Assembly: GCA_048886685.1 (NCBI GenBank) | Contig: JBHLKM010000001.1 | Location: forward strand, 160,001 to 224,000 | From: Candidatus Hodarchaeota archaeon | GTDB lineage: Archaea; Asgardarchaeota; Lokiarchaeia; Sigyniarchaeales; SOKP01 | Direction of reading: 5' to 3' | DNA: 64,000 nt | Shown: in pieces, positions 44,796 to 61,165 of the stretch | Numbering within the stretch: the stretch's first letter is position 1 | How the letters are laid out: every line of letters starts with the position of its first letter | Program-made: the position numbers and the translations under genes | Notes under the pieces: model-generated | The model's database searches: none | What the model was told of the DNA's origin: nothing | The model's input: the letters and a program-made list of their open reading frames with translations, nothing else

Positions 44796-45328
44796 ATGAG
44801 TACTAAAGGAAAAGTAACTGTTAAAGCCCTTGTGACCGGTGGAAGTGCGTCAGGTGGACCGCCTATTACATAAAACATATCGTTTTTGTGAATTTTGGCA
44901 AAGGTCCAGCAGTTGGTCCAACAGGAATAAATATCAAAGATGTTGTCGACGAAATCAACGCACAAACGATGGTATTTAAAGGCTTAACAGTACCTGTCAG
45001 GATAGAATGTGATCCAGAAACAAAACAATTTGAAATTTTTATTGAAACACCTTCCACAGCCTCATTATTACTTAAAGAAGCCGGTGTAGAAAAAGGAAGT
45101 TCAGCATCTTCGGAAACTAAAATCGGTAATCTCACAATTGACCAGATTATTAGCGTTGTTGAAGCAAAGAAAGATAGGTTTCTAGATAAAAATTTTAAAA
45201 AAGCTGTTAAAACAGTTTTAGGGACTGCCTTATCTGCTGGAATAACTGTTGAGGGAGAGGATCCCAGAGAAATTCAAAGAAGAATAGAAAGGGGAGAATA
45301 TGACGAAAAAATCAGGGGTGAATTATAA
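44796..45328 (+). CDS. rpl11: 50S ribosomal protein uL11, split gene: join(44796..44866,44902..45328), 165 aa
   Basis: Exon 1 MSTKGKVTVKALVTGGSASGGPPI and exon 2 GPAVGPTGINIKDVV...TPSTASLL...GTALSAG lie in different frames and join to give the conserved GPPIGPA motif. Confidence 0.9.
44867..44901 (+). other. Candidate BHB-type intron in rpl11 mRNA (35 nt)
   Basis: Outer stem TGGACC/GGTCCA, central helix GCCT/TGGC, bulges ATT and AAA, inner hairpin ACA(T)AAAAC/GTTTTTGT, in-frame TAA at 44871. Confidence 0.78.
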
Positions 45329-49789: not shown

Positions 49790-49890
49790 CGCAGACAGAG
49801 GGATTCGAACCCTCGAGTGCATTCACACACTGGCTTTCTGGGAATATTTCCGCTCCAAGCCAGCGCCGTACCGGGCTAGGCAATGTCTGC
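49790..49890 (-). tRNA. tRNA-Ser(GGA) with 17-nt canonical 37/38 intron (49836..49852)
   Basis: Acceptor GCAGACA/TGTCTGC, G73, anticodon stem CTGGC/GCCAG, long variable arm, BHB helix TTGG/CCAG. Confidence 0.92.
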
Positions 49891-58423: not shown

Positions 58424-58598
58424 GGGCCATTTGCTTAGCCTGGTTAACAAGGTTTTATATGCTTGGTCAACAAGCGCAGGTCTTATAAATGATCATCGGA
58501 CATACAATAATTAAATTGTCCGAAAAAGTAAAAACCTGAGATAAAAAGGGTTTATCCCTTTTACGAGGAAATCCGGGGTTCAAATCCCCGATGGCCCA
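58424..58598 (+). tRNA. tRNA-Ile(TAT) with three introns (58447..58471, ~58489..58533, 58541..58570)
   Basis: Removing the three inserts gives a 75-nt cloverleaf GGGCCATTTGCTTAGCCTGGTTAAAGCGCAGGTCTTATAAACCTGAGATCCGGGGTTCAAATCCCCGATGGCCCA. Each insert has a hairpin and BHB-like ends. Confidence 0.85.
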
Positions 58599-58750
58599 TT
58601 TTTTTCCTATCTTATAGTTTTAAATACGTAATTCTTCGTGAAACATCAATTTCACGATTTATCATATATCTCAGAGAAATATCTCTATATGTATTAAGAT
58701 ATTATCTTAAGGTTTTTGAAATAAATTTTAAAAGAGTGTGAGAAGAATTT

Positions 58751-59431
58751 TTACTTATCTAAATGAAGACTAATTAAATCAAGAAGCCATCTTTTTATTT
58801 GGGTAAGATTTTTAATAATACCTGGTATAAGATTCTCAGGAAAATTTTCTTCATGGTTTAATCTCTGAGCGGTTTCCATCCATTTGTTTAAGGCTAGTTG
58901 TACAAGACTCGCGCCTTCAGCTTCCATGAAGATCGGAATAACAGCAGCAGATTCTCGAGCATCGCCAATCGCAAAATATACTCTGCGATTATTTCCTTTT
59001 AGCATTACTAAATTAGCACACTCATCAAGTTTTCGTTCAACTAGAATACTCTTTAAGATCTGAGCTTTCAAATCTTGATCTTTTGACGTAAATTTCTCCT
59101 TTCTTCCCTTAAGAGCAGGTTGAATTTCGGTTACCACCTTATCACCTGTACCTTCTGGGCTAAAGTATTTTGTAATTTTAAGACTATCTTCTAATGCTTC
59201 TATAGATGTGAATTTTTTAGTATTTGAATAAAAAACAGCTTTAGAACCAGCTTGATCTTCACCAGTAGATAATTTTATATAAATATTTCTCATAGCTACA
59301 GAATTACATGTATGATAGGCTATTTCAAACAACTCTCTTGGTAATAAAGTACCATAAGGTTCTTCTATATGTTTGGAAAGCCATTGAGAAGTAATAACCT
59401 CGTTAAATTGGGATAAAAGTCGGTTTTCCAT
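58751..59431 (-). CDS. Hypothetical protein
   Basis: 226-aa ORF with no recognised motif. Confidence 0.65.
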   Translation of the reverse strand: MENRLLSQFNEVITSQWLSKHIEEPYGTLLPRELFEIAYHTCNSVAMRNIYIKLSTGEDQAGSKAVFYSNTKKFTSIEALEDSLKITKYFSPEGTGDKVVTEIQPALKGRKEKFTSKDQDLKAQILKSILVERKLDECANLVMLKGNNRRVYFAIGDARESAAVIPIFMEAEGASLVQLALNKWMETAQRLNHEENFPENLIPGIIKNLTQIKRWLLDLISLHLDK

Positions 59432-61072: not shown

Positions 61073-61165
61073 TGGCGGCCCTCGAGGGGAATCGAACCCC
61101 TATCCCTCCGCAGGATAACTGGGTTTGAAGCCCAGTGTCAGAGACCACTCTAACCGTCAAGGGCC
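61073..61165 (-). tRNA. selC: tRNA-Sec(TCA), 9/4 fold, CCA encoded
   Basis: Acceptor GGCCCTTGA/TCGAGGGCC (9 bp), D-stem GTTAGAG/CTCTGAC with 4-nt loop, anticodon TCA, long variable arm, 4-bp T-stem, G73-CCA. Confidence 0.95.

Follow-up and report, generated by a model that had tools for sequence, protein, structure and literature searches.

Analysis of the window, by which we mean the whole stretch of 64,000 nucleotides studied here, confirmed that positions 58424-58598 of its plus strand are a genuine tRNA-Ile gene with the anticodon UAU, interrupted by three small introns. We consider it highly likely that the transcript of this single-copy gene is spliced by EndA and RtcB and that the resulting tRNA-Ile(UAU) decodes AUA in place of an agmatidine-modified tRNA-Ile2(CAU). 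The genome of origin is a 47-contig MAG of a Lokiarchaeia-type Asgard archaeon (Promethearchaeota), rated 100% complete with 8.4% contamination and having 30.9% G+C.

Reading AUA as isoleucine without misreading AUG is achieved in bacteria with lysidine and in most archaea with agmatidine, while eukaryotes use inosine together with a Psi-A-Psi tRNA-Ile(UAU) that needs its intron in order to be modified. In the lineage described here a single intron-laden tRNA-Ile(UAU) gene would serve a codon used 34 times per 1000, and a tRNA that is probably essential would hang on three or four splicing events. This raises the questions of how U34 is restrained and of whether a eukaryote-like solution combined with an obligatory anticodon intron is pre-eukaryotic or convergent.

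The gene, its spliced product and the splice motifs

The gene is 175 nt long, 100 nt beyond the length of a tRNA, and lies alone in a gap of 566 bp with a minus-strand ORF on either side. The acceptor stem GGGCCAT/ATGGCCC is a perfect 7-bp helix followed by the discriminator A73, the T arm reads CGGGG-TTCAAAT-CCCCG, and CCA is absent from the encoded 3' end. The features of the locus are the following.

58424..58446, plus strand: exon 1, with the 5' strand of the acceptor stem, U8-U9, the 5' strand of the D stem and the D loop to A21; kept in orthologues
58447..58471, plus strand: intron 1, 25 nt, at 21/22, central helix (H) TGGT/GTCA and h' CAAG/CTTG
58472..58488, plus strand: exon 2, with the 3' strand of the D stem, G26, the 5' strand of the anticodon stem and the loop CTTATAA
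58484..58486, plus strand: anticodon TAT (UAU), positions 34-36, as called by ARAGORN on the spliced product
58489..58533, plus strand: intron 2, 45 nt, in the anticodon loop, H TTAT/GTAA and hairpin TCGGACA/TGTCCGA
58534..58540, plus strand: exon 3, a 7-nt micro-exon (ACCTGAG) with the 3' strand of the anticodon stem, A44 and G45
58541..58570, plus strand: intron 3, 30 nt, at 45/46, inner hairpin AAAAGGG/CCCTTTT
58571..58598, plus strand: exon 4, with A46-C48, the T arm, the 3' strand of the acceptor stem and A73
58599..58605, plus strand: T7 run in the sequence directly 3' of A73, a likely transcription stop

About 40 nt downstream of the tRNA, at 58636-58657, there is a hairpin, TCGTGAAA-CATCAA-TTTCACGA, followed by T-rich sequence, and CGTGAAACAT... 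likewise stands downstream of the orthologous tRNA in the relatives L004, L006, L012, L015 and L017. The hairpin may terminate transcription of the tRNA as well as of the minus-strand ORF at 58751-59431 that converges on it, or may act as a small regulatory element. The window also contains a tRNA-Sec gene at 61073-61165 (minus strand; Rfam, 63 bits) and an intron-containing tRNA at 49790-49890 (minus strand), which ARAGORN called Ser(gga).

Excision of 58447-58471, 58489-58533 and 58541-58570 yielded a 75-nt product that ARAGORN identified as tRNA-Ile(tat), a cloverleaf of standard form that has a D loop of 10 nt, the anticodon loop CTTATAA with A37/A38, the variable loop AGATC and A73. The preliminary description of this DNA had claimed just such a 75-nt Ile-type cloverleaf with the loop CT-TAT-AA and A73, and the gene and its three inserts (21/22, 37/38-38/39 and 45/46) all lie where it had placed them. 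With fewer inserts removed the ARAGORN call shifted or failed, and a clean Ile(tat) call required the removal of introns 1 and 3, or of all three. The mature sequence is identical to the tRNA-Ile(GAU) at 56 of 75 positions, a value that does not discriminate. The fold of the precursor has a z of -4.95.

Neither default ARAGORN nor the Rfam tRNA models (in gathering and E-value modes) reported the interrupted gene. Because the gene is thus invisible to standard tRNA finders, genomes that carry such genes will look unable to decode AUA.

The splice motifs were located by a rule in which the last six exon bases supply four helix and two bulge bases and the last six intron bases supply the partner strand and two bulge bases; the same rule, as a check, returned a perfect hBHBh' motif for the T-loop introns of relatives. 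The introns display the 4-bp central helix and two 3-nt bulges on opposite strands of an EndA-type motif, in relaxed form in intron 3. For the first two inserts the helices reported earlier (TGGT/GTCA and CAAG/CTTG; TTAT/GTAA and TCGGACA/TGTCCGA) were found again as described.

Intron 1 has a motif of the HBh' type, with the 3-nt bulges TA^A and AC^A (the caret marks the junction) and without an outer exon helix. Of the 31 orthologue copies tabulated, 27 have this H fully paired (4/4), and the intron-strand variants GCCA, ATCG and ATCA keep the pairing. The end of the intron nearly copies the preceding exon, TGGTTAACAAG at 58441-58451 and TGGTCAACAAG at 58464-58474 agreeing at 10 of 11 bases 23 nt apart. 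Judging from this repeat, intron 1 looks like the outcome of a local duplication in the D-loop region, or like a sequence that preserves the form of one.

The boundaries of intron 2 fall in an A-run, and removal of 58488-58532 (37/38) or 58489-58533 (38/39) gives an identical product; the register 38/39 is favoured because of the bulge-helix-bulge geometry. The motif has the bulge AA^A, with the 3' bulge offset by C32. H is paired 4/4 in every orthologue scored at 38/39, relatives pairing TTAT with ATGA or ATAA, and in five orthologues with a G-initial 39-43 strand the aligner used another register of intron 2 (3/4). In an alignment of 25 sequences the structure made up of the anticodon stem and of intron 2's central helix and hairpin was paired in 99.8% of cells as against 33-47% in slid controls. 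Six pairs of this structure have changes on both sides, and none of 500 shuffles scored as high; in the hairpin, five pairs have both-side changes among the orthologues.

The third helix, CCTG/GAGG, lies where it had been reported, with only 3 of its 4 pairs formed (CCT/AGG and a G.G mismatch) and with irregular bulges, so that the motif of intron 3 is a relaxed one. It borrows the 3' strand of the anticodon stem, and the inner hairpin has one bulged A. Among orthologues 2 to 4 of the 4 pairs are formed; CAGG (4/4) occurs in other lineages, as does CGGG with a bulge of 4 nt, and the inner hairpins are wholly different in sequence between lineages with the pairing kept.

Orthologues and the distribution of the introns

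A DNA search of 40 related genomes detected an orthologue in 21 of the 23 other genomes of the genus, and several relatives matched the query at 1-119 and 148-175 back to back, that is, exactly without the 30-nt insert. Intron-aware alignment extended the set to about 35 orthologues from several genera. Across these the tRNA-Ile(UAU) gene has five insertion sites and carries one to four introns.

D loop, 16/17: an intron in some relatives only
Intron 1 site, 21/22: occupied in most orthologues; absent in L020, L157-L161, L149 and L156
Intron 2 site, anticodon loop: occupied in every orthologue seen
Intron 3 site, 45/46: polymorphic within the genus; absent in L009-L011, L013, L014, L016, L018 and L019, the junction being CCTGAG^ATCC
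T loop: an intron in many relatives

Orthologues that lack intron 1 have a 10-nt D loop, the same as the spliced product predicts. Versions with four introns occur in L004, L006, L017, L164 and L165, where the gene measures 205-217 nt and the T-loop introns form perfect hBHBh' motifs.

Comparison with the orthologues lacking the 30-nt insert also refuted a different identity for the gene, a tRNA-Leu(GAG) with its anticodon at 58538-58540 and one intron of 77 nt. ARAGORN run with the -i option does return Leu(gag) at identical gene ends; the call, however, is forced by the one-intron model, it changes with each insert removed until Ile(tat) emerges cleanly once introns 1 and 3 are out, with or without intron 2, and in the relatives without the insert GAG falls in the variable loop. 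A tRNA-Leu(GAG) is therefore almost certainly the wrong reading, and the gene is treated as tRNA-Ile(UAU) in what follows.

The exons are near-invariant across the orthologues, and the loop CTTATAA and the anticodon are identical in 39 distinct sequences. The anticodon-arm sequence AGCGCNGGTCTTATAA occurs exactly or with one mismatch in nearly all genomes of the family. A covariance model built on the anticodon arm and intron 2 matched once in each of 32 out of 33 family genomes and gave no match outside the family; weak matches of the model in other TiaS-less Asgard genomes were rejected as coding DNA. Two genes from the sister family are likewise tRNA-Ile(UAU), with one intron each. A gapped pattern scan of public contigs was too loose, most of its 113 or more matches being due to chance, and the genuine matches came only from Promethearchaeota contigs and from four contigs labelled 'uncultured archaeon'. 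All 11 of the public Promethearchaeota/Promethearchaeia contigs returned by the scan have this arm together with the intron, scoring 75-83 bits.

The exact gain or loss of inserts from one orthologue to another, together with the compensatory changes, supports their reading as introns. A decaying tRNA pseudogene, or a gene whose inserts are retained so that it is without a functional product, might equally be missed by the standard finders and have a relaxed motif at intron 3. Yet the exons have stayed near-invariant across several genera, the introns vary in the compensatory and precise manner just described, and the genome, with ATA at 34 per 1000 codons, offers no other candidate for reading AUA, which makes a loss of function very improbable.

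Decoding of AUA and the splicing machinery

As a check the preliminary description had named a search of the genome for tiaS. TiaS was not found in it with the Pfam models TiaS_FLD and TiaS_TCKD or with a full-length Asgard TiaS query (taken from another Asgard genome and having all four TiaS domains), while four archaeal controls were positive; a bacterial TilS query also found nothing in the genome. These empty searches support the reading of a UAU tRNA in an archaeon that does not use the TiaS route. Of 200 sampled Asgard genomes with a completeness of 80% or more, TiaS turned up in 115 and in most other Asgard families, as against 0 of 44 genomes of the family studied here, 0 of 4 in the sister family and none in five other families.

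ATA accounts for 34.3 per 1000 codons in 1673 long ORFs, being the eighth commonest codon and 34% of the Ile codons. The only other Ile tRNA found has the anticodon GAU, and by standard wobble rules a tRNA-Ile(GAU) reads AUU and AUC and does not read AUA. Scans for CAU tRNAs (ARAGORN, Rfam, four home-made scans and the CAU tRNA of a relative) detected only the initiator, at C30:10443-10543; the elongator tRNA-Met was undetected too.

As the lineage has no TiaS that could be found and the GAU tRNA misses AUA, the tRNA-Ile(UAU) is very probably the essential AUA decoder. The tRNA census of the genome is incomplete, with about 33-36 tRNA genes detected and the elongator tRNA-Met missing, so a third CAU tRNA may be hidden. 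AUA could accordingly be read mainly by another route, for instance by a heavily interrupted tRNA-Ile2(CAU) with an unidentified modifier, leaving the UAU tRNA redundant or minor, and the missing elongator tRNA-Met indicates that hidden tRNA genes exist. Against this stand the failure to find TiaS or TilS domains in the genome and TiaS in the 44 family genomes, and the single-copy UAU gene itself, which 32 of 33 family genomes retain and whose anticodon loop is invariant; the pattern moreover fits that of known TiaS-less archaea (PMC6000648, PMC3239211, PMC8450103). We regard such a route as quite unlikely and retain the tRNA-Ile(UAU) as the principal reader of AUA.

Outside the window, at C1:17821-17980 (minus strand) of the same genome (G000), there is a tRNA gene 160 nt long, perfect in its acceptor stem and T arm, that ARAGORN miscalled as His(atg); it evidently holds several introns.

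The preliminary description had also drawn attention to an insert in the uL11 (rpl11) gene. The gene (44796-45328) is broken by a 35-nt insert at 44867-44901 with a bulge-helix-bulge-like motif, the best register of which has H 3/4, an outer helix of 6 bp and the flanks AT^A. Removal of the insert restores GGPPIGPAVGP in a 165-aa protein and creates an AUA codon at the junction. The AUA junction claimed earlier is thus obtained in the best motif register (AT^A), but the link drawn from it to the tRNA means little, since so common a codon gives the junction no special meaning.

Two EndA genes were identified in the genome, encoding proteins of 198 aa (alpha; L138:1453-2049, minus strand) and 200 aa (beta; L139:1438-2040, minus strand). 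The alpha protein keeps the Tyr/His/Lys residues, has its nearest match in the catalytic subunit of the Aeropyrum pernix heterotetramer (3p1z_B, E = 5e-34) and aligns through the crenarchaeal-type N-terminal loop region. In the second protein Thr replaces the catalytic His, and it is for this reason assigned as the structural beta subunit. From these sequences the EndA of the genome is predicted to be an (alpha-beta)2 enzyme, which answers the question of subunit type that had been raised, the enzyme having a catalytic alpha and a His-less beta. RtcB is present (558 bits). Asgard archaea are reported to have (alpha-beta)2 EndA, and the L1 loop has been linked to the cleavage of relaxed motifs (PMC5829648); by analogy with that work the enzyme probably has a broad specificity. 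The preliminary claim of a broad-specificity EndA is thereby made plausible, the predicted two-subunit enzyme having the crenarchaeal-type N-terminal loop that one of broad specificity would need.

In the pathway that we propose, the gene would be transcribed as a 175-nt precursor with introns of 25, 45 and 30 nt, all three of which would very probably be cut by the (alpha-beta)2 EndA. RtcB would then join the four exons, one of only 7 nt, into the 75-nt tRNA, to which CCA would be added after splicing. The product would presumably be charged by IleRS, and its U34 would presumably avoid reading AUG.

Precursor folding, intron 2 and known systems

The helix of intron 3 takes CCUG (positions 40-43) and is mutually exclusive with the anticodon stem. 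The pairing of intron 3 with the 3' strand of the anticodon stem, as first described, was therefore upheld, while the statement that it implies ordered splicing was too strong, since the three helices can coexist: a fold that unites the three central helices is possible at -41.0 kcal/mol, compared with -59.0 for the MFE, and rules out a strict order as a necessity. In the unconstrained fold of the full precursor the pairing of GGUC (29-32) with GAUC had a probability of 0.97, the intron 3 helix 0.64 and the anticodon stem 0.03; when intron 2 was removed first, the anticodon stem reached 0.84 and the intron 3 helix 0.0. The folding model suggests that intron 3 may be spliced before intron 2, being presented while intron 2 holds the anticodon stem open. 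ViennaRNA gave the central helices of introns 1 and 2 an almost zero equilibrium probability, and the motifs of these two introns would for that reason need to be captured by the enzyme; folding thermodynamics is a poor guide to what EndA captures.

No orthologue seen lacks intron 2, and its conservation goes beyond what the splice motif needs. Two elements of the intron stand out.

58491..58494, plus strand: GAUC element (GRYC in relatives), bases +3 to +6 of the intron, complementary to exon positions 29-32 (GGUC) in the RNAalifold consensus
58504..58506, plus strand: ACA at the start of the intron 2 hairpin loop, ACA in 38 of 39 distinct sequences and ATA in one

The variation of GRYC is always complementary to positions 29-32, including GGGUC/GGCCC where the exon has G28, and the resulting helix reaches 4 bp or more in 35 of the 39 orthologues, versus 39% of shuffles. 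In the gene studied here the GAUC/GGUC helix is an alternative fold that excludes the anticodon stem. The ACA is conserved at 95% or more among the 39 distinct sequences, the rest of the loop being variable in sequence and length and the preceding stem covarying. It is placed 4+1+7+1 nt beyond the GRYC element, and L149 of the sister family f2 has a different stem with the same GACC-N-7-N-ACA spacing. The geometry is that of two stackable helices on a continuous strand of 12 nt, followed by N-ACA, with U33-U34 in the loop. This fold resembles a T arm with acceptor strand and N73-CCA, the substrate of the guide-independent Psi55 activity of Cbf5.

Cbf5 makes Psi55 of tRNA without a guide RNA (PMC6138745), H/ACA RNPs of Sulfolobales can make Psi35 on the intron-containing pre-tRNA-Tyr (PMC2651775), and in yeast tRNA-Ile(UAU) Psi34 and Psi36 need the intron (PMC9602550). 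By analogy with these systems an intron-directed modification of the wobble U would be reasonable, and the conserved features of intron 2 are suggestive of it. In a more specific form, which we offer tentatively and think unlikely, intron 2 would direct the modification of the precursor's own wobble U34 (e.g. to pseudouridine) before splicing and so bar the reading of AUG, in parallel with the intron-dependent Psi34/Psi36 of the eukaryotic tRNA-Ile(UAU), the same fold ordering the splicing with intron 3 first.

Several known RNA elements were sought in intron 2 and rejected. Inspection by eye found no tandem G.A/A.G beside a helix, as a K-turn would have; a C/D box guide was likewise dismissed by eye, since AUGAUCA (6/7 here) is unconserved and the rule would target U33. 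In a classical H/ACA hairpin the ACA follows a complete hairpin on its 3' side, which is not so here, and a GUCU/GGAC stem is lost in relatives. The sole Rfam H/ACA match was on the wrong strand, with E = 0.78.

In the literature search no report turned up on AUA decoding, on the loss of agmatidine or on tRNA-Ile(UAU) in Asgard archaea, and the ingredients are already known separately, namely multi-intron Asgard tRNAs, and a tRNA-Ile(UAU) without TiaS in Nanoarchaeum, Korarchaeum and ARMAN. In Nanoarchaeum and Korarchaeum, 2 of 167 archaeal genomes, tRNA-Ile(UAU) replaces TiaS and tRNA-Ile2 (PMC6000648; also PMC8450103), and in ARMAN archaea it likewise stands in place of TiaS/tRNA-Ile2 (PMC3239211). 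The present gene shares with Nanoarchaeum equitans, Candidatus Korarchaeum cryptofilum and the ARMAN 'tRNA-Ile3' the UAU anticodon, TiaS not being found, and the presumed direct reading of AUA, and in Korarchaeum and ARMAN-2 an intron also lies beside the anticodon. It differs from them in belonging to the Asgard phylum, in having three introns instead of one, in being a trait common to a whole family and its sister family, and in the anticodon intron of 44-55 nt, which is unusually conserved.

The red alga Cyanidioschyzon merolae has a three-intron tRNA-Ile(UAU) with introns in the D arm, anticodon loop and T arm (PMC9602550; PMC6582322). As in the eukaryotic tRNA-Ile(UAU), UAU is here presumably used for AUA and the anticodon-adjacent intron is always present; unlike in eukaryotes, no extra Pus1-like paralogue is seen, a second TruA/Pus1-like gene not having been found in the genome, in which the TruA family is represented by one gene.

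Heavily interrupted tRNA genes, with D-arm introns missed by tRNAscan-SE and up to five inserts per gene, have been described from Asgard archaea (bioRxiv 10.64898/2026.10.13.758758). The gene, taken with its orthologues, resembles the multi-intron tRNAs of Asgard archaea and Thermoproteales in its short introns at the D arm, variable loop and T loop with bulge-helix-bulge motifs (bioRxiv 10.64898/2026.10.13.758758; PMC5829648), in being missed by standard finders, in the predicted (alpha-beta)2 EndA with an L1 loop and in lineage-specific gains. The preprint (10.64898/2026.10.13.758758) centres on the Freyr-, Jordi- and Atabeyarchaeaceae and leaves Ile, UAU and TiaS unmentioned; unlike there, the presence and absence of introns is here resolved for one gene within one genus. 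Compared with these systems, what is worth following is the lineage-wide trait together with the constrained intron 2.
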